Source of the DNA: an uncultured Planctomycetota bacterium
Lineage (GTDB): Bacteria > Planctomycetota > PLA2 > JAEUHO01
Reading direction: 5' to 3'
DNA: 64,000 nt
Assembly: GCA_963752285.1 (NCBI GenBank)
Contig: CAVVXN010000001.1
Coordinates: 512,001 to 576,000 of the forward strand
This document shows positions 29,483 through 45,904 of this stretch, one piece after another (the stretch's first letter is position 1; each line of letters opens with the position of its first letter). The position numbers and the translations under genes were made by a program. Under the pieces are notes generated by a model, which did not search any database, was not told the origin of the DNA, and worked only from the letters and a program-made list of their open reading frames with translations.

Positions 29483-30898
29483 TCAGCGCGCGCCGCCGCC
29501 CGCCCGGGCCGCGGCGCGCGCGTCCGTTCGGCAGTCGTCGCGGCTCGCGATCACGTCCATCTCGCCGCGCCCGTCGAGCGCGCGGCGCAAGGCGTCCACG
29601 CCTTTTGCCACCTGGTCCCGCTCCCGTTCGGGGAAGCGGAGTCGGATCGTCATGTCGCAGCGGTCTCCCTCGATGGCGCCGACGAGGCGCGGCGCGAGGA
29701 GGTCCACGATCTCCGACGCGTGCTGGAACCGGTCGGCGGGGCGCTTCTTCGTCGTGCGGCGGATCACCTCCGCGACGTCCTCCGGCACGTTCACAATCCG
29801 CTCCGCGGGGTCCGGGAACGGCTCCTTCAGATGGGCGTCGAAGATCCGCTCGATCTCGCGGTACGGGAACGGGGAACAGCCGGTGAGCAGGCGGTAGGCC
29901 GTCGCGCCGAGCGAGTAGAGGTCGGAGCGCCCGTCCACGGGTCGGCCCTCGATCGCCTCGGGCGCCACGTACGCGGGGCTGCAGAGCAGCTCTTCGTCCG
30001 GGTCGGTCTTCCGGTCCACCTGCCCGGTCGCGATGCCGAAGTCCACGAGGCGCAGGCTGCCGTCGGGGAGGAGGAAGAGGTTGCTCGGCTTGAGGTCGCG
30101 GTGCACGACGCCGAGGTCGTGGGCGTACGCGAGCGCCGAGGCGACCTCGTAGAGCACGCGACGCACGGCGTCGCCGTCGAGCGGGCCCTCGCGCGTCAGG
30201 TGTCGCTCGAGGTCGGTCCCCTCGAGCCGCTCCATGACGATGAAGTAGGTTCGGTACGCCTCCTCCATGTCGTAGACCTGCACGATGTTCTCGTGGCGGA
30301 GGGAGGCGAGGACGCGGGCCTCGTTCCGGAAGCGCTGGCACATGTCGCCGTGGAAGACGAGCGAGTGCGAGAGCATCTTCACGGCGACGGGTCGTCGCAT
30401 CTCGACGTGGTAGCCCTCGAACACCGTGGCCATGCTGCCGCGGCCGAGCACCCCGACGAGGTGGTACTTGCCCACCCGGCGCATCGTGTCCGACTCGAGG
30501 ATCCGTCTCCCCAGGATCTCGGTCAGGAACGCGGCCAGCGGGGGGTGGGCGCGGAGCTGCGCTTCCAGGTGCTCCCGCTCGATCACCATGCAGGAGCATT
30601 CGGAGACCGCCACCACGTCCGCGGTGCGGGGCTGCCCCGTGAGGAGCGCCATCTCGCCGAAGAGGTCACCCTGGCCGAGGTGCGTGGTGAAGCGGACGCG
30701 GCCGTCGTCGCCGGGGACGCGGATCTCGACCTGGCCCTCCAGGATCACGAACATCGCGTCGCCCGGCTCCCCGCACCGGACGATCGTGGTCCCCGGCGGG
30801 TACACCCTCCGCTCCGAGCGCTCCAGCAGGCGGTGGGCCTCCTCGCGCGACAGGGTGTGGAACGCGTCGAGGCTGCGGAGGAAGGTGAGCTCGGCCAT
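29483..30898 (-). CDS. cyclic-nucleotide-binding domain + Ser/Thr protein kinase
   Basis: cNMP cassette FGEMALLTGQPRTADV; kinase LGRGSMATV, VAVK, HRDLKPSN, DFG, APE, SDLYSLG. No TM seen. Confidence 0.92.
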   Translation of the reverse strand: MAELTFLRSLDAFHTLSREEAHRLLERSERRVYPPGTTIVRCGEPGDAMFVILEGQVEIRVPGDDGRVRFTTHLGQGDLFGEMALLTGQPRTADVVAVSECSCMVIEREHLEAQLRAHPPLAAFLTEILGRRILESDTMRRVGKYHLVGVLGRGSMATVFEGYHVEMRRPVAVKMLSHSLVFHGDMCQRFRNEARVLASLRHENIVQVYDMEEAYRTYFIVMERLEGTDLERHLTREGPLDGDAVRRVLYEVASALAYAHDLGVVHRDLKPSNLFLLPDGSLRLVDFGIATGQVDRKTDPDEELLCSPAYVAPEAIEGRPVDGRSDLYSLGATAYRLLTGCSPFPYREIERIFDAHLKEPFPDPAERIVNVPEDVAEVIRRTTKKRPADRFQHASEIVDLLAPRLVGAIEGDRCDMTIRLRFPERERDQVAKGVDALRRALDGRGEMDVIASRDDCRTDARAAARAGGGAR

Positions 30899-31049
30899 GT
30901 CCACGGAATGATACCGCCCGCCCGCGCCCGGATCGGCCCCCTCTGATCGTCCAACCGCCGCCCGAGGCTTGACCGAGTTCGACGGGGGCGGAATCGTTCG
31001 GATCGCCCCGCCCGGGCCCCCGGACCCGTTCTGGTATCTTCCCGGCCCC

Positions 31050-32162
31050 ATGGAAGCGCGCGCCGTCTTCGATCAGAGCCTCGGGTACTTCCTTCGCCCC
31101 ATCGCCGACCTGTTGGACGACGCGTCCGTCAGCGAGGTGATGATCAACGGCCCGGACACGATCTACGTGGAGCGGAAGGGCAAGCTCGAGCGGGTCCCGA
31201 ACCGGTTCCCGGGCCACCACGACCTCCTCGCGTGCGCCCGCAACATCGCGCAGTTCTCGGGCAAGCGGATCGACGAGTTCGTCCCCCGATTCGACGGGCG
31301 GCTCCCCGACGGCTCCCGCGTGCACGTGGTCCTGCCGCCGTGCGGGCGGAACGGGATCACGGTCGCGATCCGCAAGTTCTCGAAGTCCACGCTCACCCTC
31401 GACCGTCTCGTCGAGTACGGATCGCTCTCGCCCCAGGGGCGCGAGCTCCTGGGCCTCCTCGTCTCCCTCGACAAGAACATCGTCGTCTCGGGGGGGACGG
31501 GCAGCGGGAAGACGGCGCTCCTGAACGCGCTCTCCGGGGCCATTCCCGGCCACGACCGGATCATCGTGATCGAGGACACCTCGGAGCTGCAGCTCCAGCA
31601 GGAGCACGTGGTCTCGCTCGAGGCGCGGGCTGCCGACCGGTACGGCCGGGGCGCCGTGACGATCCGGGACCTACTGCACTCCTCCCTGCGTCTGCGGCCG
31701 GACCGGATCATCGTCGGCGAGTGCCGCGGCGGCGAGGCGCTCGACATGATGCAGGCGATGAACTCGGGGCACGCGGGGTCCATGACCACCCTCCACGCGA
31801 ACAGCCCGCGCGACGCGCTGGCCCGCCTCGAGACCCTGGCCCTGCAGGCGGACGTGGAGATCCCGCTCCTCGCCATGCGGGCCCAGATCGCCTCCGCGGT
31901 GCACGTGATCCTGCAGACCGACCGGCTGTCGGACGGGAGCCGCAAGGTGGTGAACGTCAGCGAGGTCCTCCCGCTCGACACCGAGGGCCGCTACCAGACC
32001 CAGGACGTGATGACCTTCGTCCACGAGGGGAAGGACCCCCTCGGGAAGGTGCTCGGCCAGCACCGGCTCGCGAGCCAGGTCCCCACGTTCTGGCCGGAGG
32101 TCGCCGCCCGGGGGTTCGCCGCCTCCCTCGTCCATCTGAAGGACGCGTACGCGGCCGCGTAA
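31050..32162 (+). CDS. cpaF: CpaF/TadA pilus assembly ATPase (short form)
   Basis: VSEVMING, RLPDGSRV, Walker A GGTGSGKT, IEDTSEL, LRLRPDRIIVGECRG, MNSGH, TLHAN. Confidence 0.93.
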   Translation: MEARAVFDQSLGYFLRPIADLLDDASVSEVMINGPDTIYVERKGKLERVPNRFPGHHDLLACARNIAQFSGKRIDEFVPRFDGRLPDGSRVHVVLPPCGRNGITVAIRKFSKSTLTLDRLVEYGSLSPQGRELLGLLVSLDKNIVVSGGTGSGKTALLNALSGAIPGHDRIIVIEDTSELQLQQEHVVSLEARAADRYGRGAVTIRDLLHSSLRLRPDRIIVGECRGGEALDMMQAMNSGHAGSMTTLHANSPRDALARLETLALQADVEIPLLAMRAQIASAVHVILQTDRLSDGSRKVVNVSEVLPLDTEGRYQTQDVMTFVHEGKDPLGKVLGQHRLASQVPTFWPEVAARGFAASLVHLKDAYAAA

Positions 32163-32244
32163 GTCGTGGCCCGCCCGTTTCCAACGGGCGGGGTTTGGGT
32201 CGAAGGTCCCGAGACGGGTGGGGTGGCCATCGGCTCGGGGTTCG

Positions 32245-32273
32245 TTGATTCTGACTCGCGGGATCCGTACGAT
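32245..32273 (+). promoter_or_regulatory. putative sigma70 promoter of the pilin/tad operon
   Basis: TTGATT-17 bp-TACGAT in the intergenic gap upstream of the pilin genes. Confidence 0.55.
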
Positions 32274-32378
32274 CCCGCCCCCCCGCGGTCCCTCGGGGTG
32301 GGGCGCCGCGGGTCTTGGATGGTGGTCTCTCGCGGCCGGCTGGCACGAGCTCGGCGGCCGGGATGGGAGGAGTTCGGG

Positions 32379-32594
32379 ATGGCGAAGCGGAGGTCGGTGG
32401 CCGGGGTCGTGGGGCGGCTCGGACGGGCCCTCCACGGGCTCCACGCCGACGAGCGGGCGACCTCGGACGTGGAGTACATCCTCCTCACGGCCATGGTGGT
32501 CCTCCCGCTCTTCGCCGTCCCTCCGCTCATCATGTCCGCGAACGTGGATTTCTTCGACCGGGTCGAGCCTTGGGTCGACCTCCCCTTCCCCTGA
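32379..32594 (+). CDS. Flp-like pilin (probable minor pilin)
   Basis: GGAGGAG RBS; LHADERA^TSDVEY followed by a hydrophobic helix; 71 aa. Confidence 0.75.
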   Translation: MAKRRSVAGVVGRLGRALHGLHADERATSDVEYILLTAMVVLPLFAVPPLIMSANVDFFDRVEPWVDLPFP

Positions 32595-32629
32595 TCCGTC
32601 CGGGTGGGGGCGACACTCTAGGAGAACGC

Positions 32630-32863
32630 ATGCTGACGAGGCAGAAGGTGGTGGACGCGCTGGAGCGCCTCCACCGAGACGAGCAGGGCGACGAGGGCGT
32701 CAACAAGATCCTGATCATCGCGATGATCGTGATCCCCCTCGTGATCGTCCTGATCGCGTTCGGCGGGACGATCAAGGAATTCTTCGTCAAGGCCTGGGAA
32801 GACCTGACCGGACACAGCGTGGGCGAGGCGACGTTCGGCTCCGGCGGCGGCACGGGTCCCTAA
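32630..32863 (+). CDS. Flp-like pilin (probable major pilin, atypical +5 residue)
   Basis: AGGAGA RBS; LHRDEQG^DEGVNKILIIAMIVIPLVIVLIAF; 77 aa; followed by a hairpin and the prepilin peptidase gene. Confidence 0.75.
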   Translation: MLTRQKVVDALERLHRDEQGDEGVNKILIIAMIVIPLVIVLIAFGGTIKEFFVKAWEDLTGHSVGEATFGSGGGTGP

Positions 32864-32883
32864 CGGCCGCTCGCGGGGCGGGC

Positions 32884-32915
32884 CGGGGGACCGGGAACGG
32901 CTCCCCGGTCTCCCG
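32884..32915 (+). terminator. GC-rich stem-loop after pilin gene (attenuator or mRNA stabiliser)
   Basis: CGGGGGACCGGG-8 nt-CCCGGTCTCCCG, 12-bp stem with one G-U pair; no U-tract. Confidence 0.45.
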
Positions 32916-32941
32916 ACGCCATCGACTTCGGGAAGGCCTCC

Positions 32942-33481
32942 ATGGACGCCGGACTGCTGACCTTCGACCTCCCGCTCCTCGCGGTGGCGACCGCCGCCGC
33001 CGTGACGGACGTCCGGGAGGGAAAGGTCTACAACCGGCTCACCTACCCGGCGGTCCTGCTGGCCTTCGGCCTCCACGCCCTGGTCCGGCCGCCGGGTCTC
33101 GGACTCGGCGGGGCCGCGGAAGGCTTCCTCGTGGGTTTCGTCCCCATGTTCGTCGCCTACGCCGCGGGCGGCCTCGGCGGGGGCGACGTGAAGCTGATGA
33201 CCGCCGTGGGCACGTTCCTCGGGCCGTTGCTCGCGGTGTACGCGCTGCTCTACACCTTCCTGTCCGGAGCGGTCCTCTGCCTCATGCTGATCGTCTACCA
33301 GGAAGGCCCCGCCGGCCTCGGGCGACGCCTGCGCCACCTCGGCGCGGGTGAGGACGGGACCGGGCGCCTCGCGCTCCGGTTCCCCTTCGCCGCGGCGGTG
33401 TGGCTCGGGGTGGTCTGGGTCCTGGTCGAGCGGTACGTGGGGGCGAGCCTCGCCGACGTGCTCCTGAGGTCGGTGTCGTGA
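32942..33481 (+). CDS. cpaA: A24 prepilin peptidase (TadV/CpaA)
   Basis: AVTDVREGKVYNRLT, GLGGGDVKL, FPFA; multiple TMs. Confidence 0.9.
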   Translation: MDAGLLTFDLPLLAVATAAAVTDVREGKVYNRLTYPAVLLAFGLHALVRPPGLGLGGAAEGFLVGFVPMFVAYAAGGLGGGDVKLMTAVGTFLGPLLAVYALLYTFLSGAVLCLMLIVYQEGPAGLGRRLRHLGAGEDGTGRLALRFPFAAAVWLGVVWVLVERYVGASLADVLLRSVS

Positions 33482-34320
33482 CGCTCGCCGCCTCCCCGGT
33501 CGCCGGCCTCGGACCCGTGCTCGCGTCCGGGCTCGCCCGGCCGCTGCCCAGCGGGTTCTGGTGGTGCGTCGCGGGCCTGGTCGCCTGCGGGGGGGCCGGG
33601 CTCCTCGCCTTCTCGATCCTGCTCCGCCGCGTGCGCCTCGCGCGCGTGAGACGCCTCGCCGCCAGCGAGGACGGGACGACGATCGTCGAGTTCCCGTTCG
33701 CGATGCTCACGCTCGTCCTGATGACCACCCTCACGTGGCAGCTCGGGTTCATGGCGAGCGCGTACCTCGTCGTGGACTACGCGGCCTACGCGGCCGTTCG
33801 GGCGGCCATCGTCCAGATCCCGCCCAAGCGGAGCAACGACGAGCCGGCGAACAAGATCAAGGACATCTCGTTCAAGGGCTCCGACAAGGGCAGCGACATC
33901 GAGGACGCGGCGATCTTCGTGTGCTACCCGATCTCCGGGACGTACACGAACGCGGCGGCGGGCTCCGCGCAGATCCCCATCCTCGACGAGGTGAAGAAGG
34001 TGCCCGGCTGGGACACGGTCGCGAAGGCCTTGGGCCCGCTCACGTTCGCCCTGCGGTACGTGTACGCGATGGAGAACACGAGCGCGCGGCTCGTGGTGGA
34101 CGGCCAGGACTCCGGCGCGAAGGAGTTCTCCGCCGGCGATCTCCTGACCGTGCAGGTCGTCCACCAGTTCAGTCTGCGCGTACCGATCGCGGAGCGGCTG
34201 TTCGGGAAGCTCAGCTTCCCCGCGGGCTACACGACCGCCCTCGAGGCCAAGGCCTCGATGCTCTTCGAGGGCGCGAACGAGCAGGTGCCCGCCGACGCGC
34301 CCTCGGGGGCCCAGCCGTGA
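33478..34320 (+). CDS. TadE-like pseudopilin with N-terminal extension
   Basis: SEDG^TTIVEF, hydrophobic helix, YAAYAAVRAA; GTGA overlap with cpaA. Confidence 0.8.
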   Translation: MTLAASPVAGLGPVLASGLARPLPSGFWWCVAGLVACGGAGLLAFSILLRRVRLARVRRLAASEDGTTIVEFPFAMLTLVLMTTLTWQLGFMASAYLVVDYAAYAAVRAAIVQIPPKRSNDEPANKIKDISFKGSDKGSDIEDAAIFVCYPISGTYTNAAAGSAQIPILDEVKKVPGWDTVAKALGPLTFALRYVYAMENTSARLVVDGQDSGAKEFSAGDLLTVQVVHQFSLRVPIAERLFGKLSFPAGYTTALEAKASMLFEGANEQVPADAPSGAQP

Positions 34321-35963
34321 CGCCCGGCTTCGACCCCTTCGACCGCTTGGACGGACCGCGCGACGCGCGCCCGGACCCGGACGCGGCGCTGCCGGCGCAC
34401 GCCGCGGGGGAGCGGGGCGGGCTCGTCGGCCTCCACCGGGACCGGCGGGCGCAGATCCTGCCCCTCGTCTTCTTCATGGGGATCGCGTTCTTCACGAGCG
34501 TCGTCCTCGTGCTGAACACCGGTCGGACCACGGTCCGGCGCATCCGCGCGCAGAACGCCGTAGACGCGGCCGTGGTGTCGGGCGCGAACGCCGTCGCGCG
34601 CGGCATGAACTACGTGGCGTCCAACAACATCTCGATCTCGAAGCTGCTCGCGACGGTCGTGATCCTCCGTGCGTTCGGGCCCGCGATCGACGACGCGAAC
34701 GCCACGCTCGACGTCTGGCAGGCGATCGGCGAGGCGCTGGAGGACATGGCCGCCGTGCCCTACGTGGGGCCCGCGCTGGCGGCTGCGGGCGCCGCCATCC
34801 TGGTCAAGGTCGAGATCGAACGGGCCATCCTCGAGGTCCTCGAGCCGATCGTGGACGGGCTGAAGGACGTGTGGGACGGGGACAACGAGAGCGGGGTCGC
34901 CTGGATCCTCATCCGCGCCCTCCACTACCTGGGCGTCGGCACGGTGTACGCCACGCCCGTCCTCGCCCAGTGGACGACCGTCAGCGTCTACAACAAGAAC
35001 GTCTCGCCGGAGAGCGGCGCCGCGTGGATGCTGCCGCTGTACCCGAACCTGCCCGCCTGCGAGGGCAAGTTCGCCGACTTCTACGACTGGACGAAACACT
35101 GGGTCGAGGAGATGGCCGACCCGATCTACATCGCGGGCTGGGCCCTCCTCACCCTCTCGATGTTCCCGCTCTGGTACAAGGCCCACCTCACGTCCGAGCT
35201 GAACCAACTCTTCACCGGGACGGGAACGGACACGAACGTGGACGACCCCGACACGAAGAAGATGCAGGAGCTGAACAAGGAGCTCGACAAGAAGAACGCC
35301 GAGCTGACCCAGCTCGAGAACGAGCGCGTGAAGCTCCAGGGGGAGCTGGACGACCTGAAGAAGCGCAAGGCCGATGGCGAGAAGGGTCTCGACGACGACA
35401 TCCAGAAGAAGCAGCAGGAGGTGACCGCGAAGGAGGGCGAGATCGAGAAGAAGCGCGACGAGATCAAGGACATCCAGGACCAGATCCAGGAGATCAACGA
35501 CCGCCGGACCCAGCAGGGCGGAAAGCCCCCCGACGACTTCAACGGCGACCTGGGCGGCATGCAGGGGTCGGCGCAGGACCGGGACTGGCCCCACCCGTGG
35601 CTCCTCGACGGCTCGAAGTACCCCGACTCCTTCTCGTACGTCGGGATCGGCTGGCGCACGCTCGGCACCCCGCTCGTCCCCGTCAAGTTCCAGAACCTGA
35701 TCTCGCAGGGTTTCACGTACGCCGCCGCACGCGTCTACAACAGCACGCAGGCCGACCTGTGGACCGCGGACTGGCGCGCGCGACTCGTCAAGGTGGACGC
35801 CAACATGCTGTCGAACCCGATCGGCACGCTCCCCCACAAGTGCGGGGAGCAGGGCGGCAGCGGAGGATCCGAGATCTCCCAGAACGGGCCCGACGGCCAG
35901 CCCGACGCGAACGGGCTCGCCGACCAGCTGAACACCTTCCTCGGCTTCCTGAACAAGCACTGA
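34317..35963 (+). CDS. TadG-like tip pilin/adhesin with coiled-coil insertion
   Basis: HRDRRA^QILPLVFF, AQNAVDAAVVSGA, WTADWRARL near the C-terminus; E/K-rich coiled coil. Confidence 0.78.
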   Translation: MTPGFDPFDRLDGPRDARPDPDAALPAHAAGERGGLVGLHRDRRAQILPLVFFMGIAFFTSVVLVLNTGRTTVRRIRAQNAVDAAVVSGANAVARGMNYVASNNISISKLLATVVILRAFGPAIDDANATLDVWQAIGEALEDMAAVPYVGPALAAAGAAILVKVEIERAILEVLEPIVDGLKDVWDGDNESGVAWILIRALHYLGVGTVYATPVLAQWTTVSVYNKNVSPESGAAWMLPLYPNLPACEGKFADFYDWTKHWVEEMADPIYIAGWALLTLSMFPLWYKAHLTSELNQLFTGTGTDTNVDDPDTKKMQELNKELDKKNAELTQLENERVKLQGELDDLKKRKADGEKGLDDDIQKKQQEVTAKEGEIEKKRDEIKDIQDQIQEINDRRTQQGGKPPDDFNGDLGGMQGSAQDRDWPHPWLLDGSKYPDSFSYVGIGWRTLGTPLVPVKFQNLISQGFTYAAARVYNSTQADLWTADWRARLVKVDANMLSNPIGTLPHKCGEQGGSGGSEISQNGPDGQPDANGLADQLNTFLGFLNKH

Positions 35964-36580
35964 TGCGGACGACCCGACCCACGCCCCCGACCCCCCGGCG
36001 CACGAGGCGCGGCCGCGACCGCGGCTCGGCCACGGTCGAGATCATGCTCTCCGTGCCCTTCCTCGTGGTCTTCTCGCTCTTCGCGTTCGACTTCGCCCGG
36101 GGCTACCTCTCGGCGCAGCGCGGCCTCCGCGCGGCGCGGCAGGTCGCGTGGATGTACTCGCGACACCTCGACGACTCGAGCAAGCCCGACGTGCCGAACG
36201 ACCAGACGCTCCTCGCCACGCACTTCGACGGCAAGGGCGGCGCCGTGACGCACGCCACGTCCACGGAGCAGGAGAAGCTGCCCGGCCCCCTGTCGTTCCT
36301 GTCCGACGTCGGAGACGCGCTCAGCGACATCATGAACGTCTTCGACAACGACAGCCGTCTCGGCTCGTACTTCTCGTTCATGACGGGCAACATCGAGATG
36401 GAGAAGGGGACCGTGACGCAGGGCGTGACGGGCCTCTGGCGCTTCGCGCAGGGCACGACGATGACCCAGAACCACTGGGTCGCGCTCCGCTCCTGGCGCG
36501 AGGAGGATCCCGGCCGCCACGTCGGCTGGTGGGACCCGTTCGTCGCGATCGTGGACGCCATCACCCCCAAGTCGGACTGA
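35963..36580 (+). CDS. TadE-like pseudopilin
   Basis: RDRG^SATVEIMLSVPFLVV, AARQVAW; TGATG coupling to the upstream gene. Confidence 0.78.
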   Translation: MRTTRPTPPTPRRTRRGRDRGSATVEIMLSVPFLVVFSLFAFDFARGYLSAQRGLRAARQVAWMYSRHLDDSSKPDVPNDQTLLATHFDGKGGAVTHATSTEQEKLPGPLSFLSDVGDALSDIMNVFDNDSRLGSYFSFMTGNIEMEKGTVTQGVTGLWRFAQGTTMTQNHWVALRSWREEDPGRHVGWWDPFVAIVDAITPKSD

Positions 36581-36596
36581 GAGGGAGCCGAGCCCG

Positions 36597-37511
36597 ATGA
36601 CCGTGCCGTGGATCCCGCCGCCGGGGACGAAGCCGCGACCGGGGAACGTCGTGCTCATGGCGCTGACGGGCGCGCTCTTCGCCGCGGGCGCCGTGATGAT
36701 GGCGGGCTGGCTCAGGGACCGCGGCACGGCCCTCGACGCCGCGCCCCCGCCGCCGCCGCCCCAGGCGCGGTCCGTCGTAACGCGCCTCGACCCGAGGGTC
36801 GAAGCCTTCCTCGGCGGCGGCGTCTCGTGGGGGCCGGAAAAGCGCGACTGGTTCGGGCCGAGCCCCGCCGTGCTCGTGAGCGGCCACGCGGAGGCGTCGC
36901 CCCGCGAGGTCTTCCGCGCGATGGTGGGAGAGCCCCTCGACGACGAGGCCGTCCAGGCCGCGATCCGGAAGGGCCCGTCCGCGGCCGTGGCCCTCCGGAG
37001 CCAGCTCACGATCGGCGTGATGCCCCAGGGGGCGTTCCTCCTGCGTCTCGCGCCCGATCTCGACGCGGCGCGTCACGGGCGCCTGGCCACGGAGCCCGGC
37101 GCCGTCACGCTCGCGTTCCCGGCCGCGAGCGGCTGGGACTACGTGACGTGGGTGTTCCCACGCGGCCTCTCGCTCGACGGCCTGCCGGACGCCTACCGGG
37201 CCCCGCCGCGCGCGCTCGACGACCTCGGCGCCGCGGCGGTCGCGCGACTCGAGCCGGTGTTCCAGGTGAACGCCGGCGTGGGCGGCGGGCCGCGTACGGT
37301 CCTGTGCCGCGCCCGCGGGCGCGCGGGGGACGCGGTCTCCGAGGTGGCCGGCGCCCTGATCGGGACCGGGTGGACCTCGCGGTACGGAGAGGAGCACCAC
37401 GAGGGCGGCCTCGTGCGCGTGCTCGAGGACGGCCGCCGCCAGGTGTGGCTCGCGGCGGCGGACGAGGACCAGGACGGGGGCCTCGTGAGCGTGGTCGTGG
37501 GATCTCTCTAG
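36597..37511 (+). CDS. hypothetical membrane-anchored protein in tad operon
   Basis: 304-aa ORF with N-terminal TM and Pro-rich linker, filling the operon gap. Confidence 0.65.
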   Translation: MTVPWIPPPGTKPRPGNVVLMALTGALFAAGAVMMAGWLRDRGTALDAAPPPPPPQARSVVTRLDPRVEAFLGGGVSWGPEKRDWFGPSPAVLVSGHAEASPREVFRAMVGEPLDDEAVQAAIRKGPSAAVALRSQLTIGVMPQGAFLLRLAPDLDAARHGRLATEPGAVTLAFPAASGWDYVTWVFPRGLSLDGLPDAYRAPPRALDDLGAAAVARLEPVFQVNAGVGGGPRTVLCRARGRAGDAVSEVAGALIGTGWTSRYGEEHHEGGLVRVLEDGRRQVWLAAADEDQDGGLVSVVVGSL

Positions 37512-38224: not shown

Positions 38225-38267
38225 GCGCGTAGGCGACCTGGGCCGTCCGAGGAAGGAGGCTTCGCAC

Positions 38268-40142
38268 ATGGGCTTCGCGCTCCGCGTGTTCGACGGCGAG
38301 CGACAGACCGTCCGGGTCCAGCAGATCGACGCGACGAGCGTCAAGATCGGCCGCACGGAGGCATGCGACATCGTCCTCGCGAGTCCGTACGTGTCGCGCG
38401 AGCAGGCGGTCATCCGCGCGCTCGACGGCCGGTACGTCTTCGAGTCCGTGGGGCGCAACCCGAGCTTCGTGAACGGCAAGGAGATCCACTCGGGGCAGAC
38501 CGTCGAGGTCGAGCCCGACGACGAGATCCGGATCGCGGAGTTCTCGATCTACATCGAGGGGGCGAAGCGGCGGAAGGAAGACGAGTTCGACGTCGCGGGC
38601 GCGCTCGCCGCGATCGAGCTCGGGCTGCACTCGCGCCTCCTCGAGAGCGTGGATCTGCGCGAGCTCGGTCGGAGCGGCGTCTCGGAGGACACGAACCCGA
38701 AGCTCCGTCTCGCGCTGGAGGACCTGGTCCGCGCCGCCGTGCCGGAACAGGGCGGCGGGATGGCGCCGGAGGTGCTGGCGCACGCGCTCCGGGAGTGCCT
38801 GTACAGCGAGATCGTGCAGGAGGTCCTGGCCCGCGCGGCGGGGCCGGGGGGGGCCGACCAGACCGGCGGCTTCGCGGGAAAGCTCGACGCGATGCTCTCG
38901 ACGGTCGTGAACTCCTTCTGCAAGCGCCTCGAGATCGAGGGCACGAAGAAGTCGGTCCGGCAGGACCTGCGCCGCGTGGACCAGGGGTTCTCCGCCGTCT
39001 TCGACGCGTTCGTGGGCGGCGCGGCCCCGGAGCTCAAGACGCTCATCGTCCGCCGCTTCCTCACGCGCGAGATCATGAACCTCGTGTGCGGGTTCGGTCC
39101 CCTCCAGGACCTGCTCGAGCTCCCCAACACGAGCGAGATCATGGTGGTCCACAAGGACCTCATCTACATCGAGCGCGAGGGCGTCCTCGAGCGGCTCCAC
39201 CGCACGTTCATCACCGACGAGATCCTCGTCAGCGTGATTCAGCGCATCGTCGAGCCCCTCGGGCGTCGGATCGACCGCTCCACGCCGCTCGTGGACGCGC
39301 GCCTCCCCGACGGCTCCCGCGTGAACGCGGTGATTCCGCCGCTCGCCGTGAAGGGCCCCTGCCTCACGATCCGGCGGTTCTCGAAGACCCCGCTCACCGC
39401 CGCCGACCTCGTCCGCTTCGGGTCGCTGACCGAGCCGGCCGTCGAGTTCCTGAAGGCCTGCGTGCACGGGCGCAAGAACATGATCATCTCCGGGGGCACC
39501 GGTTCCGGCAAGACGACGCTCCTCAACGTCCTCTCGGCCTTCATCCCCGAGGACGAGCGGATCGTGACCATCGAGGACTCCGCCGAGCTGCAGCTCCGGC
39601 AGGCCCACGTCGTGACGCTCGAGACGCGGCCGCCGAACGTGGAGGGCAAGGGCGCGTACACGATCCGCGACCTGGTCCGCAACGCGCTGCGCATGCGGCC
39701 CGACCGCGTGATCGTCGGTGAGTGCCGCGGCGGCGAGTCGCTCGACATGCTCCAGGCCATGAACACGGGGCACGACGGTTCGCTCACGACCCTCCACGCG
39801 AACTCCCCCGAGGACGCCATGCTGCGCCTCGAGACGATGGTGCTGGAGGCCGTGGACCTCCCCGTCCGGGCGATCCGCAGCCAGATCGAGGCCGCCGTGC
39901 ACGTGATCGTGCAGGCGTCGCGGCTGGCGTCCGGGAAGCGCATGGTCACCCACATCTCCGAGGTGGTCGGCATGGACCCGGAGGACGGTCGCATCCTCAC
40001 GAACGACATCTTCGAGGAGCGGGACGGCCAGCTCCTGCAGAGCGGCTACCTGCCCACGTTCGTCGGGGACCTCGTGGACAAGGGGTACATCGATCCGGGC
40101 GTGCTCTTCGCCGCGTCCGTGGAAGAGGAGGCCTCCGCATGA
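38268..40142 (+). CDS. cpaF: FHA-domain-fused CpaF/TadA ATPase
   Basis: N-terminal FHA (KIGR..DIVL..VSRE..VNG); GFGPLQDLL, GGTGSGKTT, LRMRPDRVIVGECRG, MNTGHDG. Confidence 0.93.
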   Translation: MGFALRVFDGERQTVRVQQIDATSVKIGRTEACDIVLASPYVSREQAVIRALDGRYVFESVGRNPSFVNGKEIHSGQTVEVEPDDEIRIAEFSIYIEGAKRRKEDEFDVAGALAAIELGLHSRLLESVDLRELGRSGVSEDTNPKLRLALEDLVRAAVPEQGGGMAPEVLAHALRECLYSEIVQEVLARAAGPGGADQTGGFAGKLDAMLSTVVNSFCKRLEIEGTKKSVRQDLRRVDQGFSAVFDAFVGGAAPELKTLIVRRFLTREIMNLVCGFGPLQDLLELPNTSEIMVVHKDLIYIEREGVLERLHRTFITDEILVSVIQRIVEPLGRRIDRSTPLVDARLPDGSRVNAVIPPLAVKGPCLTIRRFSKTPLTAADLVRFGSLTEPAVEFLKACVHGRKNMIISGGTGSGKTTLLNVLSAFIPEDERIVTIEDSAELQLRQAHVVTLETRPPNVEGKGAYTIRDLVRNALRMRPDRVIVGECRGGESLDMLQAMNTGHDGSLTTLHANSPEDAMLRLETMVLEAVDLPVRAIRSQIEAAVHVIVQASRLASGKRMVTHISEVVGMDPEDGRILTNDIFEERDGQLLQSGYLPTFVGDLVDKGYIDPGVLFAASVEEEASA

Positions 40143-40993
40143 GCCTACTGGCGGTCGCCCAGGACATGCTCCCGACCGATGTCGTCGTGTTCCTCGCGGC
40201 GGCGGCGATCGTGTTCGCCGTGAGCGGTCGCATCGGGACCTGGATGGAGCGACGCAGGGCGCGCGCGCTCTCTCTCCAGCTCCAGCTGCGGCAGGAGGGC
40301 GGGGTCGGCTTCCAGGTGTACGGCCCTCCGGTCATCGCGCTCTTCATCTTCGCCGTCACGGTCGCCATGGGGCTCTCGATCCTCGGGCTGATCGTGGCGT
40401 TCGCGGTGTTCAAGGCGCTCGACGCGCTGCCCAAGATGCTCGCGAAGCGGAGACACCGCCGGTTCGACGAGCAGCTCCCGGACGCGCTCACGGCCCTCGC
40501 GAACAGCCTGAAGGCCGGGCTCTCGCTGCCGCAGGCGGTGGCGCTCGTGGCGCGCGACATGCCGTCCCCGACCCGCGAGGAGTTCGCGGAGATCCAGCGG
40601 TCCTACGAGATGGGGAAGCCCATCGAGCAGGCCGTGGACGACGCCCGCGACCGGGTGCGCAGCCGCAACTTCGAGCTCGCCGTGACCGCCTTCCGCGTCG
40701 GGAAGGAGCGGGGCGGCAACCTCGCGGACGTGTTCGAGAAGATCTCCGACTCCATCCGCGAGATCTGGCGACTCGAGGAGCACATCCGTACCGTCTCGAC
40801 GCAGGGCCGTTCGAGCGCGCGCTTCATGACGTTCATGCCGGGCGTGTTCCTGGTCCTGCTCTACTTCATGGACTCCGAGTCCACGCTCCTGATGTTCAAG
40901 GACCCCGTCGGGCTGGTGATCCTGAGCATCGTGCTGGTTTTCAACCTGATCGGCCACCTCTGGATCCGGAAGATCCTGAGCGTGGACATCTGA
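40139..40993 (+). CDS. tadB: TadB inner-membrane platform protein (T2SSF)
   Basis: FDEQLPDAL, LKAGLSLPQA, GGNLADV, QGRSSA; TMs. Confidence 0.9.
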   Translation: MSLLAVAQDMLPTDVVVFLAAAAIVFAVSGRIGTWMERRRARALSLQLQLRQEGGVGFQVYGPPVIALFIFAVTVAMGLSILGLIVAFAVFKALDALPKMLAKRRHRRFDEQLPDALTALANSLKAGLSLPQAVALVARDMPSPTREEFAEIQRSYEMGKPIEQAVDDARDRVRSRNFELAVTAFRVGKERGGNLADVFEKISDSIREIWRLEEHIRTVSTQGRSSARFMTFMPGVFLVLLYFMDSESTLLMFKDPVGLVILSIVLVFNLIGHLWIRKILSVDI

Positions 40994-41009
40994 GGGGAGG
41001 AGGAAGGCC

Positions 41010-41903
41010 ATGCTGCTCGCAGCCGACGTGGTGATCTTCCTGGCCGTGTTCCTCGTGGTCATGTCGGTGGGCAGGATCGCGGAGTTCCGCTACGACTACA
41101 CCCTCGTGGCCGACATCCTGGCGGAGCGCCGCCGGAAGGCCCTCGACGAGGCGCCGCTCCGCCGCCTCCTCGACCCGCTCGTCGTCGGGCTGTCCATCGT
41201 CGTGCGGCGCCTCGGGCTCGCGGGGCTCCGCGCCCGCGTGCAGCACGAGCTCATGCAGGCGGGGAACCCCTGGGGCTACCGGCCCGAGGAGTACATCGCG
41301 TGGTCGATGTCCCTCGCGCTCGTGGTCGGCGGGGGCGTCGCGGGAGCCCTTCTGGTCACGGGCCGCTTCAACGTGTTCTTTCCCCTGCTCGCCACGGCGA
41401 TCGTGTACCTGGCCACGATGCAGGGGCTCAAGTCGCGCGGCGACCGCCGCCGCGTCGAGCTCGAGCGCCAGCTTCCCTACTTCCTCGACCTGACGTCGCT
41501 CTCGATGGGCGCGGGCGCCACGTTCCTGCAGGCGTGCGAGTCGGCGATCCAGCGGCCCACGAAGGGCCCCCTCGAGGAAGAGGTCGAGCTCATGCTCCGC
41601 GAGATCCAGGCCGGCACGCCCATGGGGCAGGCGCTCCAGAACATGACGAAGCGCATCGAGAGCGCCGAGCTCGCCCAGATGATCCAGGCGGTGCACCAGG
41701 GCGAGGAGCTCGGCACGCCCCTCGTCCGGGTCTTCGAACAGCAGGCGGACCTGAACCGCTACCGGCGCAGCAAGCGGGGCGAGCAGATCGCCGCGAAGCT
41801 CCCGAACCGCCTCGCCGTGCCCACTGTGTTCCTCATGCTCGCCGTGTTCCTGCTGCTGTTCGGCCCGATCATCATCAAGGCGACGCGTGGAGGGCTGGCC
41901 TGA
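41010..41903 (+). CDS. tadC: TadC inner-membrane platform protein (T2SSF)
   Basis: LPYFLDLTSL, GPLEEE, ELGTPL, C-terminal TM ending GPII. Confidence 0.9.
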   Translation: MLLAADVVIFLAVFLVVMSVGRIAEFRYDYTLVADILAERRRKALDEAPLRRLLDPLVVGLSIVVRRLGLAGLRARVQHELMQAGNPWGYRPEEYIAWSMSLALVVGGGVAGALLVTGRFNVFFPLLATAIVYLATMQGLKSRGDRRRVELERQLPYFLDLTSLSMGAGATFLQACESAIQRPTKGPLEEEVELMLREIQAGTPMGQALQNMTKRIESAELAQMIQAVHQGEELGTPLVRVFEQQADLNRYRRSKRGEQIAAKLPNRLAVPTVFLMLAVFLLLFGPIIIKATRGGLA

Positions 41904-42889
41904 TGTCGAAGGTCAAGGACGCACAGGAGAACGCGCTCCACACGATGCTCCGCATCGAGGCGCCCCAGGGGCGCGTCTCGCTCGTGGACCTCATGGGGGA
42001 CTCGTATCTCGTCGGTCGAGGGGACCCCACCGGGGTCAGCCGCGTCGACTTCCAGATCCCCGAGGACGAGTTTCTGTCGCGCGTCCACGCCAAGATCGAG
42101 CGGGACGGGGAGGGTGGGTACCTCGTCGAGAACCTGAGCCCGAACGGCACCCTGGTGGACGGCGCGCTGATCAAGCGGCCGACGCTGCTCAAGGGCAAGA
42201 CGAAGATCGAGATCGGTCAGGGGACGACGCTCACCTTCCTCGTCGTGACGGCCGACGAGCGGAAGCGGCTGTTCGAGGAACAGTCGGGCGTCAAGGAGCG
42301 CCAGGCCGAGACCGGCGGCGGTCTCGAGGCGCCCGAGAAGAAGTCGTTCCTGCAGCGACCCGTCTTCCTCGGGCTCGTCGTGTTCTACGGGCTCCTCGCG
42401 GTCGTGGTGCTGTCGATGCTGGGCCAGAAGAAGGCCACGGTGCTCGACCCGGGCAAGGGCCCGTACTTCGGCGACTTGATGCACGGTCCCGTCTCGACGC
42501 AGCGTCCGGAGATCGACGCCGACGCGATCGCGGACACGATGTGGAAGGAAGCGCTGGCGAAGCACGGCGAGCCGGTCGTGGACGAGGGCGGTCACGCGTA
42601 CATGCTGGTGCTGGCCGCGCAACGCGTCGCGGGCGTGCTGGGCTATCCGACGCTCCAGGCCGCCCTCGACAAGCGCGAGGGGTTCGCGCAGAAAGCGAAG
42701 CTCGTGCTCGACGACCTCGAGAAGCGGGTCCAGGCCGACCACGAGCTCGGCCAGAAATTCATCGACGGGCGCCACTGGGCGCTCGCCTACGACGTGTACA
42801 AGCGGATGGCCGCCGCGGTCCCCGACAACCGCTCCAAGGTCCGGGAGTTCGCCCTGGACCGCGTGGAGAGGCTGGGGCCGATGCGCTGA
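41903..42889 (+). CDS. FHA-domain membrane protein
   Basis: Canonical FHA residues VGR, SRVHA, SPNGT; central TM; helical C-terminal domain. Confidence 0.85.
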   Translation: MSKVKDAQENALHTMLRIEAPQGRVSLVDLMGDSYLVGRGDPTGVSRVDFQIPEDEFLSRVHAKIERDGEGGYLVENLSPNGTLVDGALIKRPTLLKGKTKIEIGQGTTLTFLVVTADERKRLFEEQSGVKERQAETGGGLEAPEKKSFLQRPVFLGLVVFYGLLAVVVLSMLGQKKATVLDPGKGPYFGDLMHGPVSTQRPEIDADAIADTMWKEALAKHGEPVVDEGGHAYMLVLAAQRVAGVLGYPTLQAALDKREGFAQKAKLVLDDLEKRVQADHELGQKFIDGRHWALAYDVYKRMAAAVPDNRSKVREFALDRVERLGPMR

Positions 42890-43030: not shown

Positions 43031-45904
43031 GTGGGGCAGACGTTCGACGCCGATCGCGATCTGACGGGCGAGGAGGTGGGGGGGCGGTACGTGCTCCTCG
43101 CGCGCATCTCCTCGAGCCCTCGCTCGTCGGTGTACCAGGCCCAGGACACCAAGCTCATGCGCCGCGTCGCCGTGCGCTTCCCGGGGCGCGAGGCGCTCGC
43201 GGCGGCGGGGTTCGCCGAGCGGTTCCAGCGGGTCGTCCGCTCGGTCTCGGACCTCCAGCACGACGGGCTCGTCGGCGTCGTGGACTTCGGCGAGCACGGC
43301 GAGCTCCCGTACGCCGTCGTCCACCACGTGGGGGGCGAGAGCCTGGCCCAGCGCCTCGGGGCGAGGCAGGCCCCCCAGAGCCCGGCCGAGGTCGTCGCGT
43401 GGATCCACCCGGTCGCCGCCGCGCTCGACTACGTGCACGAGAAGGGCGAGGCGCACGGTGCCGTGGGGCCGAGGACGGTCCTCCTCGACAAGCCGCCCTC
43501 CACGCGGGCCTACCTGGCCGATTTCACCGTCCGCCGGGCGCTCAGCGACCAGCGACCCGACCCGAAGGACGATCAGCGCGGGCTCGCCGCCGCGGCCCTG
43601 GCCGCCCTCACGGGGAAGGCGCCGCTGGCCCCGGGCCAGACCGCGCCGTCGCTCTCCGGCGTCGTCCCCGACGCCGCCGCCAAGGCCCTGGCCCGGGCCC
43701 TCGACCCGGACCGCGCGAAGCGGTTCGAGAGCGCGGGCGCCTTCGCGGCGGCGTTCAGCTCGGGTCTCGCCGCCACATCCGCCACGCCGAAGGGCGGCGC
43801 GCCGAAGGGCGGCGCCAAGGCCGCGGCCAAGGGGGCGCCGATGGCGACGGTGTCGGACTCCGACACCCTCGGCTTCGGCCGGCCGCGGCCGGCCGCGGCG
43901 GAGGCCCCCGCGCCCGCCCCCGCGGGCGACGGGGACCCGCACGCGACGCGCGGCATCGTCATGCGCGGGCGCAAGAAGAGCAGCATGCCGATGGTGCTCC
44001 TCCTCGTGGTGCTGGTCGTGGGGGCGATCGCGTTCGTCGCCGTCCAGAACGGGGGCAGCGGGAACCAGCAGAAGAAGGTGGACGACAACGTCGCCCCGAC
44101 GCTCAAGGTCGTCCAGCCGGTGGACGGCTTCCGCACGAACGCGCCCGACGCCACGGTCGCGGGCACCTGCGACGATCCGAAGGCCATCCTCACCGTGGAC
44201 GACGCGACGGTTCCCATTCAGCCGGACGGGACGTTCCGCACGGTCACTCGCATCCCCAAGGAGGGCGAGCAGACGATCCGCGTGAAGGCGACCGACCAGG
44301 CCGGGAACGCCACCCTCCAGACGGTGAGCGTCGTGCGCGACTCCAAGCCGCCGACGCTGACCATGCTCGGGCCCGACGCGAAGACCCTCATGACGCCCAC
44401 GACGGCGCCCACGATCACGGTCGAGGGCCAGGTCGGCGAGCCGGACGCCGAGGTCGAGGTCGCCGGCCAGAAGGTGACCGTGGACCCCGACGGCAAGTTC
44501 AAGGCCGAGGTCGAGATCCCCGACGACGGCGCGAACACGATCACGATCGTGGCGCGCGACGACCTGGGCAACGAGTCGAAACAGCAGGTGGTGGCCCATC
44601 GGCGGCTGGTCATCTGCTGCGACACGCTCGCCATCACCTCGCCGCTCGACGGGACGGCGACCCGGGAGTCGTCCATCGAGGTGACGGGGCTCATGGAGGA
44701 CCCGCGCGCGAGCGTGAAGGTGAACGGCCAGGCCGTGACCGTCGGACGCGACGGCGTGTTCCGGGGCACGGTGCCGCTCGAGGGGGAGGGCGAGCACGAG
44801 ATCGTCGTGGAGGCCTCCGACCCGAAGGGCCACCACGGGACCGCGCGCGTGCGCATCACCCGAGACCTGACCCCTCCCGTACTCCAGATCACCGAGCCGA
44901 AGTTCTGGGTCCGCAACGCGGATCGCGTCCTCGGGACGTCGTCGGGTCCGCTCAACCTGAGCGGGACGGTGGCGGACGGGACACGGTGCAGCCTGTACGT
45001 GAACGGGCTGCTCGGGAGCGTGACGGGGAAGACGTGGAACGCCACGATCAACCTCTCCGTCGGGGAGCAGCTCGTGAACATCTGGGCCGTGGACGCGGCG
45101 GGGAACCGCTCGGACCCCCTCGTGTTCAAGGTCACGATCCCGCGCGCCACCATCTCGGGTCTCACCTACAAGGGCGAGAACGAGAAGGGGTATCAGGAGT
45201 TCACGCTCGACAAGGACCCGACCGTCGTGCTCGTCCTCGTCCCCGAGGGCGGGTACGTGCGTGGCGGCATGATCGGCGACCCCGACGTGCAGCCCGACGA
45301 GATGCCCCAGCAGCGCATCATCATCGGGGCGTTCCTCGTCGCGAAGGGCGAGACGACGTGGTCCCAGTACCTCCGGTTCTGCAAGGACAGTGGCCACGCG
45401 CTCCCTCCGGGCGTGGAGGAGAAGGGTCTGCTCCTCGACCACCCCGTGAACCAAGTCACGTTCGACGACGCCATGGCCTACTGCAAGTGGGCCGGACTGC
45501 GACTCCCCACCGAGAGCGAATGGGAGCGGGCCGTCCGCTTCCGTTCCGAGGACACGATCTGGCCGTGGGGGTCCAAGTGGGACCCGAAGGCGGCGAACAT
45601 GGCCGGCATCCGCGGCAACACCACTTCCGTGTCCGCGTACCCCGCGACCGGCGACCTGCTCCTCCTCGACGCGGCGGGCAACGTGTCCGAGTGGTGCGCG
45701 GACTGGTACGCCGCGGACGCCTACAGCGAGATGCCCGTGAAGGATCCGCAGGGCCCGAAGAGCGGGACGAAGCGCGTCGTCCGCGGCGGGAGCTGGCGTG
45801 ACAAGTCGGAGCGCGGCCGCTGCTCGGACCGGGAGGGCGAAGATCCCTCGGCCCGTTCGAACTGGATCGGCTTCCGCGTGGCGGCGAGCGTGGGCGCGAA
45901 GTGA
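43031..45904 (+). CDS. pseudokinase + TM + Ig-like repeats + FGE-sulfatase (SUMF1) domain protein
   Basis: Degenerate kinase N-terminus; TM; four ~90-aa beta-rich repeats; RLPTESEWE, GNVSEW, RGGSW, IGFR. Confidence 0.85.
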   Translation: MGQTFDADRDLTGEEVGGRYVLLARISSSPRSSVYQAQDTKLMRRVAVRFPGREALAAAGFAERFQRVVRSVSDLQHDGLVGVVDFGEHGELPYAVVHHVGGESLAQRLGARQAPQSPAEVVAWIHPVAAALDYVHEKGEAHGAVGPRTVLLDKPPSTRAYLADFTVRRALSDQRPDPKDDQRGLAAAALAALTGKAPLAPGQTAPSLSGVVPDAAAKALARALDPDRAKRFESAGAFAAAFSSGLAATSATPKGGAPKGGAKAAAKGAPMATVSDSDTLGFGRPRPAAAEAPAPAPAGDGDPHATRGIVMRGRKKSSMPMVLLLVVLVVGAIAFVAVQNGGSGNQQKKVDDNVAPTLKVVQPVDGFRTNAPDATVAGTCDDPKAILTVDDATVPIQPDGTFRTVTRIPKEGEQTIRVKATDQAGNATLQTVSVVRDSKPPTLTMLGPDAKTLMTPTTAPTITVEGQVGEPDAEVEVAGQKVTVDPDGKFKAEVEIPDDGANTITIVARDDLGNESKQQVVAHRRLVICCDTLAITSPLDGTATRESSIEVTGLMEDPRASVKVNGQAVTVGRDGVFRGTVPLEGEGEHEIVVEASDPKGHHGTARVRITRDLTPPVLQITEPKFWVRNADRVLGTSSGPLNLSGTVADGTRCSLYVNGLLGSVTGKTWNATINLSVGEQLVNIWAVDAAGNRSDPLVFKVTIPRATISGLTYKGENEKGYQEFTLDKDPTVVLVLVPEGGYVRGGMIGDPDVQPDEMPQQRIIIGAFLVAKGETTWSQYLRFCKDSGHALPPGVEEKGLLLDHPVNQVTFDDAMAYCKWAGLRLPTESEWERAVRFRSEDTIWPWGSKWDPKAANMAGIRGNTTSVSAYPATGDLLLLDAAGNVSEWCADWYAADAYSEMPVKDPQGPKSGTKRVVRGGSWRDKSERGRCSDREGEDPSARSNWIGFRVAASVGAK

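Follow-up and report, generated by a model that had tools for sequence, protein, structure and literature searches.

What kind of machine is encoded by a pilus gene cluster that carries two motor ATPases and, within and beside it, the parts of a Ser/Thr phospho-signaling pathway? We addressed this question for a stretch of 64,000 nucleotides (hereafter the window; contig CAVVXN010000001.1, positions 512,001–576,000) from the genome of an uncultured Planctomycetota bacterium (assembly GCA_963752285.1, referred to as G000; 4.64 Mb in 5 contigs, 89% complete). The initial annotation, made from the sequence alone, had described the segment 29483–45904 of the window as a phosphorylation-gated pilus for predation or contact sensing, related to the Kil apparatus of Myxococcus xanthus. 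We consider it likely that the locus represents a separate lineage of type IVc (Tad/Flp) pilus operons, which occurs in Planctomycetota and has cousins in uncultured Myxococcota, and that its pilus is gated by phosphorylation and served by a second motor, possibly for retraction, where we infer the mechanisms of the gating and of the second motor. The main interest of the locus lies in this second motor and in the built-in phospho-signaling of a well-conserved form of the Tad pilus.

The Pilus Operon and Its Two CpaF Motors

At a G+C content of ∼72%, plain lists of open reading frames (ORFs) of the window are swamped by spurious frames. Genes were therefore called from frame plots of third-position G+C, and protein families were assigned to the ORFs by Pfam and NCBIfam profile searches. 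These confirmed the 13 co-oriented tad-type genes of the initial annotation on the forward strand at 31050–42889. Five of the junctions overlap by 1–4 nucleotides, and the other gaps are ≤78 nucleotides apart from the largest, 216 nucleotides ahead of the first pilin gene, given an ATG start at 32379. The locus is a genuine Tad/Flp (type IVc) pilus gene cluster with the hallmarks of such systems: CpaF-type ATPase (twice), TadB and TadC, Flp prepilins with an A24 peptidase, CpaB, and a TadE/TadG/TadE set.

With the canonical Tad systems of Caulobacter (cpa) and Aggregatibacter (tad), the locus shares Flp pilins, the A24 peptidase, CpaB/RcpC, CpaF/TadA, TadB plus TadC, and TadE/F/G (PMC12019362 and PMC11300603). 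The canonical systems have a single bifunctional ATPase, the secretin CpaC/RcpA with a pilotin, and TadZ/CpaE for placement of the machine; no secretin, pilotin, or TadZ/CpaE was found in the locus. What the locus has beyond the canonical plan is another ATPase, a pair of FHA domains, and a receptor of the kinase type.

The two CpaF ATPases announced in the initial annotation, one short and one FHA-fused, are both present. The product of 38268–40142 (+; 624 amino acids) matches FHA (E = 2e-13, residues 25–89) and T2SSE (2e-63), and that of 31050–32162 (+; 370 amino acids) matches T2SSE (4e-57) and consists of the N-terminal domain (NTD) and the ATPase domain only; the FHA domain is found on the 624-residue protein alone. 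The FHA-CpaF aligns with the solved Caulobacter CpaF (8e-102) from chain residue 131 onward. FHA-fused CpaFs, mostly from betaproteobacteria, have been assigned to class III, with the order FHA domain, disordered region, three-helix bundle (3HB), NTD, and ATPase domain (CAD) (Yen et al. 2025, PMC12019362). The window motor shares with this class the FHA domain, a long linker (residues 101–258), and the NTD/CAD core, and may thus follow the class III plan, yet it belongs to a separate planctomycete clade.

The short CpaF is devoid of FHA domain, linker, and 3HB. It is 50% identical to residues 278–607 of the long motor, retains all the catalytic motifs (Walker A, Asp box, Walker B, His box), and aligns to chain residues 143–499 of the solved Caulobacter CpaF (4e-92), its N terminus coinciding with the start of the NTD of that structure. 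At most ∼30 residues precede the NTD in 12 of 12 well-called short CpaFs. In the description of Yen et al., a disordered stretch of 79 residues and the 3HB precede the NTD; the bundle contacts the platform in their model, and 3HB, NTD, and CAD together form what they call the minimum CpaF architecture (PMC12019362). Because it has no 3HB, the short CpaF fits none of their three classes. An identity as VirB11/TrbB-type conjugation ATPase was considered and rejected: NCBIfam scores stay below the cut-offs, the match to VirB11 (5e-36) is far inferior to that to solved CpaF, and the short CpaFs are always found inside Tad loci. The literature searched yielded no account of a tad locus with two CpaFs, the only related case being a second-locus cpaF2 of Sinorhizobium, and no paper that joins CpaF, FHA, and planctomycetes.

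A pair of motors, the long PilB and the short PilT, is known from type IVa pili. Both systems would place two paralogous hexameric ATPases on one platform, the longer with extra N-terminal domains and the shorter reduced to NTD and ATPase domain, but both window ATPases are of the CpaF type. PilT is a dedicated retraction ATPase (PMC11300603). By analogy, the short CpaF would act as a second motor on the same platform, most likely for retraction or for extension that is not gated. Tad pili are described as single-motor machines (PMC12019362, PMC11300603), and a conserved second CpaF without the 3HB, encoded in the same operon and found in two phyla, would make the question of Tad retraction directly testable by genetics.

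The analysis drew on a scan of species-representative genomes for CpaF loci, which returned 80 loci including the KilF orthologues of Citreicoccus (L072) and Archangium (L048), and on a phylum sample of 300 evenly drawn further Planctomycetota genomes plus G000 (n = 301); L numbers denote loci and G numbers genomes. The named scan loci may overlap the phylum sample, and the two sets were never summed. A quick tree of the ATPase core comprised 100 rows; a careful tree (supports given as ultrafast bootstrap/SH-aLRT) comprised 61, with all FHA, short, and TadZ-fused forms kept along with 12 others and 2 outgroups. The two trees agree on the main clades. The short CpaFs (12 or 13 rows) from two phyla form a single clade (100/100) on a stem of 0.59–0.61 and, judged by these branches, are an old and well-separated clade and no recent duplicate.

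The FHA-CpaF of the window groups with those of G017 and G027 (100/100) within a 13-member planctomycete FHA-CpaF clade (100/99) of the 61-row tree. This clade is sister to four CpaFs of uncultured Myxococcota (L004, L010, L011, and L032; 93/86), three of which carry FHA and all four of which have a short CpaF in their locus. The KilF pair L048 and L072 (100/99) joins L039 (94/84) amid proteobacterial FHA-CpaFs, and several moderately supported branches lie between this pair and the planctomycete clade in both trees. The FHA-CpaF thus appears separate from the KilF orthologues, as judged solely from branch supports. As to the kinship with Kil suggested initially, the ATPases do not fall into an ordinary non-FHA clade, but they do not group with KilF either.

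Scanned for N-terminal domains, 28 of 38 long CpaFs carry FHA; they come from at least six phyla (Planctomycetota, Myxococcota, beta- and gammaproteobacteria, Lentisphaerota, Spirochaetota, and others). The other 10 N termini comprise two weak FHA-like matches, five ParA/TadZ-like domains, and three without any match. Because the FHA-CpaF fusion occurs in at least six phyla, it is not diagnostic of Kil. The five CpaFs with a fused CbiA/ParA-type N-terminal domain (L007, L017, L055, L061, and L035) stem from Bdellovibrionota-type and other MAGs (three from Bdellovibrionota-type records; one record is labeled Deltaproteobacteria and one Eremiobacterota), in agreement with a preprint that names a TadZA fusion in Bdellovibrio (10.64898/2026.07.08.737194). 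Two further placements stand out. An FHA-CpaF from a metagenome-assembled genome (MAG) labeled Anaerolineales (L009) is nested in the planctomycete clade (96* in the 100-row tree), and one from a MAG labeled Streptomycetaceae (L043) lies amid proteobacterial FHA-CpaFs; these reflect either mis-binned contigs or gene transfer.

That the host is non-myxobacterial, as the initial annotation had allowed, is borne out: it is a planctomycete by its best named matches and the tree neighbors of its kin. Among named records, Planctomycetota MAGs match the FHA-CpaF best (76–77% identity), and in the tree the FHA-CpaFs of two genomes of the same phylum adjoin records named as Phycisphaeraceae and Planctomycetaceae. 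Related loci carry the planctomycete-typical PSCyt/PSD genes. The DUF1559 profile (PF07596), tried as a hallmark of the phylum, gave no match anywhere, with the controls likewise blank, and thus carries no information on the host.

Relation to Kil

Kil is published as a Tad-like machine with one ATPase, the FHA-fused KilF, and many FHA proteins; its genes, spread over two clusters, encode a short secretin as well as “Tip” pilins that resemble TadE/F/G (Seef et al. 2021, PMC8460266; Herrou et al. 2025, PMC12075869). According to the same papers, it serves contact-dependent killing of prey alongside a needleless type III system and has been recorded from predatory Myxococcales, Bdellovibrionales, and Bradymonadales. 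The Citreicoccus locus L072 of our scan corresponds by Pfam to the published cluster 1: it encodes an FHA protein, a secretin that has pil_N and BON domains, the FHA-KilF, and a 2xFHA protein, but no TadB/C.

The window locus resembles Kil in its Tad derivation, the FHA-CpaF, extra FHA proteins, the absence of TadZ from the cluster, the TadE/F/G-like set, and suspected phospho-signaling upstream. Whereas Kil has two clusters, one ATPase, a secretin by KilF, and a cytoplasmic 2xFHA protein, the window locus is one operon that has two ATPases, just one FHA protein with a transmembrane (TM) segment, and a receptor (pseudo)kinase but is devoid of a secretin. The host phylum differs as well, the ATPase clade contains no KilF orthologues, and no link to predation is known. 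Of the relationship to Kil proposed in the initial annotation, the shared FHA-CpaF and extra FHA protein remain, but the KilF clade, the cluster layout, and the secretin differ. We conclude that the locus is a distinct relative of Kil and not a member or copy of it.

It is very unlikely that a planctomycete has acquired a Kil-type contact-dependent killing apparatus and uses it for predation; no sign of a predatory lifestyle was found, although none was specifically looked for. The architecture of the FHA-CpaF is that of KilF, and extra FHA proteins are a hallmark of Kil (PMC8460266), but this fusion occurs across phyla, and the KilF orthologues group with proteobacterial FHA-CpaFs. Outside the planctomycetes, the motor has its nearest relatives in Myxococcota MAGs, yet these are not Myxococcaceae Kil loci. 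The TadE/G/E set does resemble the Kil Tips (PMC12075869), and a single origin of all FHA-CpaFs is compatible with the well-supported branches of the 100-row tree. Against a Kil-type apparatus stands the makeup of the Citreicoccus Kil cluster 1, whose secretin, 2xFHA protein, and missing TadB/C contrast with the single operon, two ATPases, and missing secretin of the window. The kinase/FHA association described below may nevertheless inform the trigger of Kil assembly, which the Kil papers leave open (PMC8460266, PMC12075869).

FHA Proteins, Kinases, and Their Conservation

Directly after TadC, the operon encodes the second, membrane-bound FHA protein of the initial annotation (41903–42889, +; 328 amino acids), with an FHA domain (1e-11), one TM segment, and a helical periplasmic domain. 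The GR, SRVH, and NG motifs are present. In the AF2 model (pLDDT 85.6), a canonical FHA domain (Z = 16.3) is followed by the TM helix and a six-helix periplasmic domain, for which the protein atlas gave only TPR-like leads below 0.9. This FHA-TM architecture recurs in 13 other loci. The FHA domains of the motor and of the FHA-TM protein both keep the Arg, Ser, and Asn of the phosphothreonine pocket.

A 14th co-oriented gene (43031–45904, +) begins 141 nucleotides past the 13-gene run and encodes a receptor-like protein with a kinase-like domain, a TM segment, four Glucodextran_B/Ig-like domains, and an FGE-sulfatase-like domain; the next gene beyond it (45923–46600) lies on the opposite strand. 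Pfam covers only positions 13–151 of the 263-position kinase profile. Compared with the intact orthologue of G027, Lys is replaced by Arg (VAVR), HRD by HGA, and DFG by DFT, and ∼29 residues of the activation segment are deleted. The receptor-like pseudokinase of the initial annotation thus matches its coordinates exactly and has lost its catalytic motifs; by these replacements, the protein is a true pseudokinase and no active Hanks-type kinase.

Upstream, the divergent Ser/Thr kinase with a cNMP-binding domain that had been annotated is likewise found at exactly its coordinates (29483–31051, −; cNMP_binding 4e-25, Pkinase 3e-53). It is cytoplasmic, without a TM segment, and its motifs are intact (VAVK, HRDLKPSN, DFG, and the FGEMAL...RTA cassette). 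The start is probably M52 at ∼30898, leaving ∼150 nucleotides to the operon.

For conservation we compared G027 (same order), G017 and G003 (same family), and G001 (same genus, 80% complete). G027 has all 13 genes and the receptor in identical order, and G017 and G003 have the same genes in pieces on short contigs. A full-length FHA-CpaF is found in 4 of 40 relatives (plus one fragment at a contig end) and is missing from G001, so that its distribution among relatives is patchy. In the phylum sample, 17 of the 300 further genomes carry it (18 of 301 with G000), as do 17 of 191 high-quality genomes counting G000. Several carriers (G036, G185, G199, G215, and G231) have genomes in one contig that are 91–99% complete.

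Around these 18 FHA-CpaFs, up to 10 kb on each side was surveyed in a six-frame scan with local profiles. A Ser/Thr kinase was detected within ∼10 kb in 15 carriers, an FHA-TM gene after TadC in 12, and a short CpaF in the fetched stretch in 12. For one carrier, G291, the fetched stretch was truncated. In five carriers without a nearby short CpaF, the best genome-wide match is an ORF of 374–412 amino acids with 48–56% identity and no assigned clade, which in one of the five lies ∼12 kb from the motor. Two layouts recur: in layout 1, to which the window belongs, the short CpaF comes first, with pilins and peptidase upstream; layout 2 runs CpaB, motor, TadB, TadC, FHA, kinase, and its short CpaF lies downstream or in another place. 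Recurring positions of the kinase are those behind the peptidase or the FHA-TM gene, and its ectodomain varies across loci (TPR, CarboxypepD_reg-like, or Ig plus FGE). The link to Ser/Thr phospho-signaling is therefore conserved, as shown by the kinase in 15 of 18 carriers and the FHA-TM gene in 12.

G166 combines both FHA-CpaF layouts in one genome (L089 and L090), having layout 1 together with its short CpaF as well as layout 2. In three loci of one family (L083, L093, and L095 from G038, G185, and G149), the FHA-CpaF has no adjoining TadB/TadC or kinase, and PSCyt/PSD and DUF1501 genes follow it in L083; the platform genes of these genomes must lie elsewhere in the genome.

Synteny of the flanking kinases in related genomes was a check named in the initial annotation. 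The pseudokinase receptor is syntenic in G027 and G003, but the cNMP kinase is not. The colinear receptor orthologue of G027 has an intact Pkinase domain (8e-38) with Lys, HRD, DFG, and APE all present. That of G003, also colinear, is dead too and shares the Lys-to-Arg replacement; a separate active kinase of 395 amino acids follows it. Both genomes with a dead receptor (G000 and G003) thus have an active soluble kinase adjoining the operon, and the two kinases are not orthologous. This would fit an arrangement of pseudokinase plus partner kinase, a lead drawn from two related genomes only.

Could the kinases be chance neighbors? An ordinary adhesive Tad pilus in a kinase-rich genome, with its second CpaF a redundant duplicate, would agree with the core parts, which all belong to standard Tad families, with the non-syntenic cNMP kinase, and with the dead receptor. 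It would also agree with the 44 Pkinase and 19 FHA hits of the genome, which fit the kinase-rich planctomycetes of PMC11032199, where kinase-TM-FGE receptors are common. From 44 Pkinase hits in 4.64 Mb, however, a kinase would be expected by chance among ∼18 neighboring genes in about one-fifth of loci, whereas 15 of 18 genomes have one within or next to the locus and at recurring positions. The FHA-TM gene of the same architecture after TadC in 13 other loci also speaks against an ordinary Tad pilus, and a redundant duplicate is at odds with the depth of the short-CpaF clade. We therefore regard this explanation as unlikely.

How might a phosphorylation-gated Tad pilus work? The ectodomain of an operon-linked Ser/Thr kinase would sense a periplasmic or surface cue, upon which the kinase would phosphorylate threonines on parts of the machine. 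The FHA domains of the motor and of the membrane adaptor would read these marks and thereby recruit the FHA-CpaF to the TadB/C platform or release it, so that pilus extension would be switched by phosphorylation instead of being placed by TadZ. Because the kinase domain of the receptor is dead in the window, the phosphate would have to come from another kinase, for which the adjacent cNMP kinase is an obvious but unproven candidate. A receptor Ser/Thr kinase with two FHA readers would provide a simple model for switching an envelope machine without TadZ.

Threonine phosphorylation of the Pseudomonas aeruginosa type VI secretion system (T6SS) involves the receptor kinase PpkA, the FHA protein Fha1, and the phosphatase PppA. 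The logic would be shared, in that a membrane Ser/Thr kinase with a periplasmic sensor and an FHA scaffold gate the assembly of an envelope machine. The differences are the machine itself, the lack of a PP2C match in the window, the dead receptor, and the fusion of one FHA domain to the motor. Control of the Pseudomonas T6SS by threonine phosphorylation is cited, and invoked for Kil, in PMC8460266.

We further put forward a more specific version of the phosphorylation-gated pilus, which is speculative and, taken as a whole, doubtful. In planctomycetes and some uncultured Myxococcota, the long CpaF would be dedicated to kinase-gated extension and the short CpaF to retraction, in convergence on PilB/PilT. 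In the lineage of the window, the pseudokinase would relay to a separate soluble kinase, here gated by a cyclic nucleotide, so that a surface cue and a second messenger would be joined. The pilus of planctomycetes would pass the outer membrane with no secretin dedicated to it.

Several points weigh against a phosphorylation-gated, two-motor pilus. The gating is a prediction from gene content and conservation. Retraction by the short CpaF is a possibility suggested by analogy only, and Caulobacter CpaF alone powers both extension and retraction (PMC12019362, PMC11300603). The placement of the short clade is unstable: it lies beside the long clade of two-motor loci at 49/0 in the 61-row tree and with a non-FHA clade in the 100-row tree. 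No counterpart of the cNMP kinase lies beside the locus in G027, G017, or G003, and its nearest match in the same genus (G001), full-length and 35% identical, is away from the locus; this kinase is a neighbor and no conserved part of the system, and any role for it in the system is a guess. Pfam-type searches found no PP2C phosphatase in the window. The 3 of 18 carriers that have neither a kinase nor TadB/C beside the FHA-CpaF belong to one family, and close kin among the carriers (three of one genus and two of another) lead to overstated independence. No CbiA/ParA-type match to TadZ/CpaE was found among the locus proteins, to which the search was limited. Finally, neither Pfam nor a six-frame search with a local profile detected a secretin in the locus, and the CpaC-type N-domain (PF13629) was not found anywhere in the 89%-complete genome. 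As annotated, the machine is incomplete for a diderm.

Outer-Membrane Passage, Pilus Components, and Neighboring Genes

The missing secretin is relevant to the way in which planctomycetes, whose envelope is unusual, bring fibers to their surface. Likewise, Pfam detected no pilotin among the locus proteins, and no secretin was found by Pfam or the local profile, which was built from four sequences only, in the window-type planctomycete loci examined. Outside the locus, the genome has six secretin matches above the cut-off, none of them close to Tad/Kil secretins (KilC at best 30%). In the Myxococcota cousins, a secretin lies beside CpaB in 4 of 4 loci, and a few planctomycete loci of layout 2 give weak matches (39–56 bits).

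A Tad-derived machine that forms no surface pilus, such as a periplasmic pseudopilus in secretion or envelope remodeling, would explain why window-type loci are devoid of a secretin and why the genome contains neither PF13629 nor a close match to Tad/Kil secretins, and lineage-specific periplasmic proteins in the locus would suit such a role. We consider it highly improbable nonetheless. The locus encodes a full pilin set (two Flp-like plus TadE/G/E), the Myxococcota cousins do have their secretin, the local profile used alongside Pfam comprises only four sequences, and in a genome that is 89% complete any of the six secretins encoded elsewhere could serve the phosphorylation-gated surface pilus that we favor. 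A secretin gene (533-amino acid ORF) with two Ser/Thr kinase matches at a distance of 3–4 kb was observed at G000:C1:67948-72557; it is the sole secretin on the contig of the window and lies 440 kb from the pilus operon.

The five pilin-like genes of the initial annotation are accounted for by two Flp-like prepilins, TadE, a TadG-like protein, and a second TadE. The first prepilin (32379–32594, +; 71 amino acids, in an ORF open from 32166) is of the Flp type, with a leader, a G/XXXXEY-like site (A/TSDVEY), a hydrophobic helix, and a C-terminal PFP, and aligns with counterparts in L081, L085, L082, and L001. The second (32630–32863, +; 77 amino acids) is Flp-like but atypical, with Asn in place of the usual Glu5; it has a good ribosome-binding site and counterparts in L081 and L085 that are 55–71% identical. 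Pfam matched neither of them in the search of the window proteins. These small ORFs were counted as pilins because they possess a leader and a hydrophobic helix and align with the two conserved Flp-like prepilin types of related loci.

Next follow a prepilin peptidase of the TadV/CpaA type (32942–33481, +; 179 amino acids; Peptidase_A24, 7e-18) and a TadE-like minor pilin (33478–34320, +; TadE, 3e-5, above the cut-off), whose gene overlaps its neighbors by 4 nucleotides on each side. The large TadG-like minor pilin (34317–35963, +; 548 amino acids) matches Tad (PF13400) at 8e-5, above the cut-off, and has counterparts in G027 and G017 that align across residues 33–509. Its residues ∼305–400 form a Lys/Glu/Asp-rich coiled-coil insert with weak SMC/Rad50-type matches, which is unusual in a pilus tip protein. 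The second TadE-like minor pilin (35963–36580, +) matches TadE at 1e-3, below the cut-off, and is colinear in L081 and L085.

The gene at 36597–37511 (+) encodes a bitopic membrane protein of 304 amino acids, colinear in G027 and G017, that matches no Pfam or NCBIfam family. Its family is very small, with only 32 clusters in a set of 1.84 billion representatives, and appears in the protein atlas as unnamed clusters only, mostly of Planctomycetota. The AF2 model (pLDDT 84.9) shows one TM helix, a Pro-rich linker, and two periplasmic α/β domains. Its fold led to no assignment: the match to PA1624 (Z = 8.9) is confined to residues 199–304 and to a generic periplasmic α/β fold, and Foldseek TM-scores are ∼0.2. 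We conclude that it is a lineage-specific membrane protein. The remaining genes of the operon encode CpaB/RcpC (37526–38224, +; RcpC, 2e-15; TIGR03177, 87 bits against a cut-off of 71) and the platform proteins TadB/CpaG (40139–40993, +; T2SSF, 4e-17; four hydrophobic segments) and TadC/CpaH (41010–41903, +; T2SSF, 7e-14).

The G+C content is flat throughout the pilus locus, a tRNA scan of the whole window found none and hence no hint of an integration site, and a scan of the window for sigma-70 promoters and terminators gave nothing exceeding shuffled controls. A sigma-54-like pattern (TGGCAC-N5-CGGC; 32341–32355, +) is located 24 nucleotides before the ATG of the first pilin. The pattern occurs 20 times in the window against 33 expected by chance and so carries no signal; that the first pilin may be sigma-54 dependent is a weak lead. 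The genes at 23661–26805 (−), some 4 kb upstream of the operon, encode a HAMP histidine kinase and a sigma-54-type response regulator (Response_reg, Sigma54_activat, and HTH_8). A check of sequencing runs listed no RNA run, and eight DNA runs contained a fraction of 0.06–0.20 of the sampled words. Directly downstream of the pilus locus, an unusual redox trio occupies 46662–52259, beginning with a protein with a haem-binding domain (−), followed by a 1087-amino acid fusion of TPR, Fer4_20, Pyr_redox_2, and 4Fe-4S dicluster domains and by a cytochrome b-like protein of 615 amino acids.

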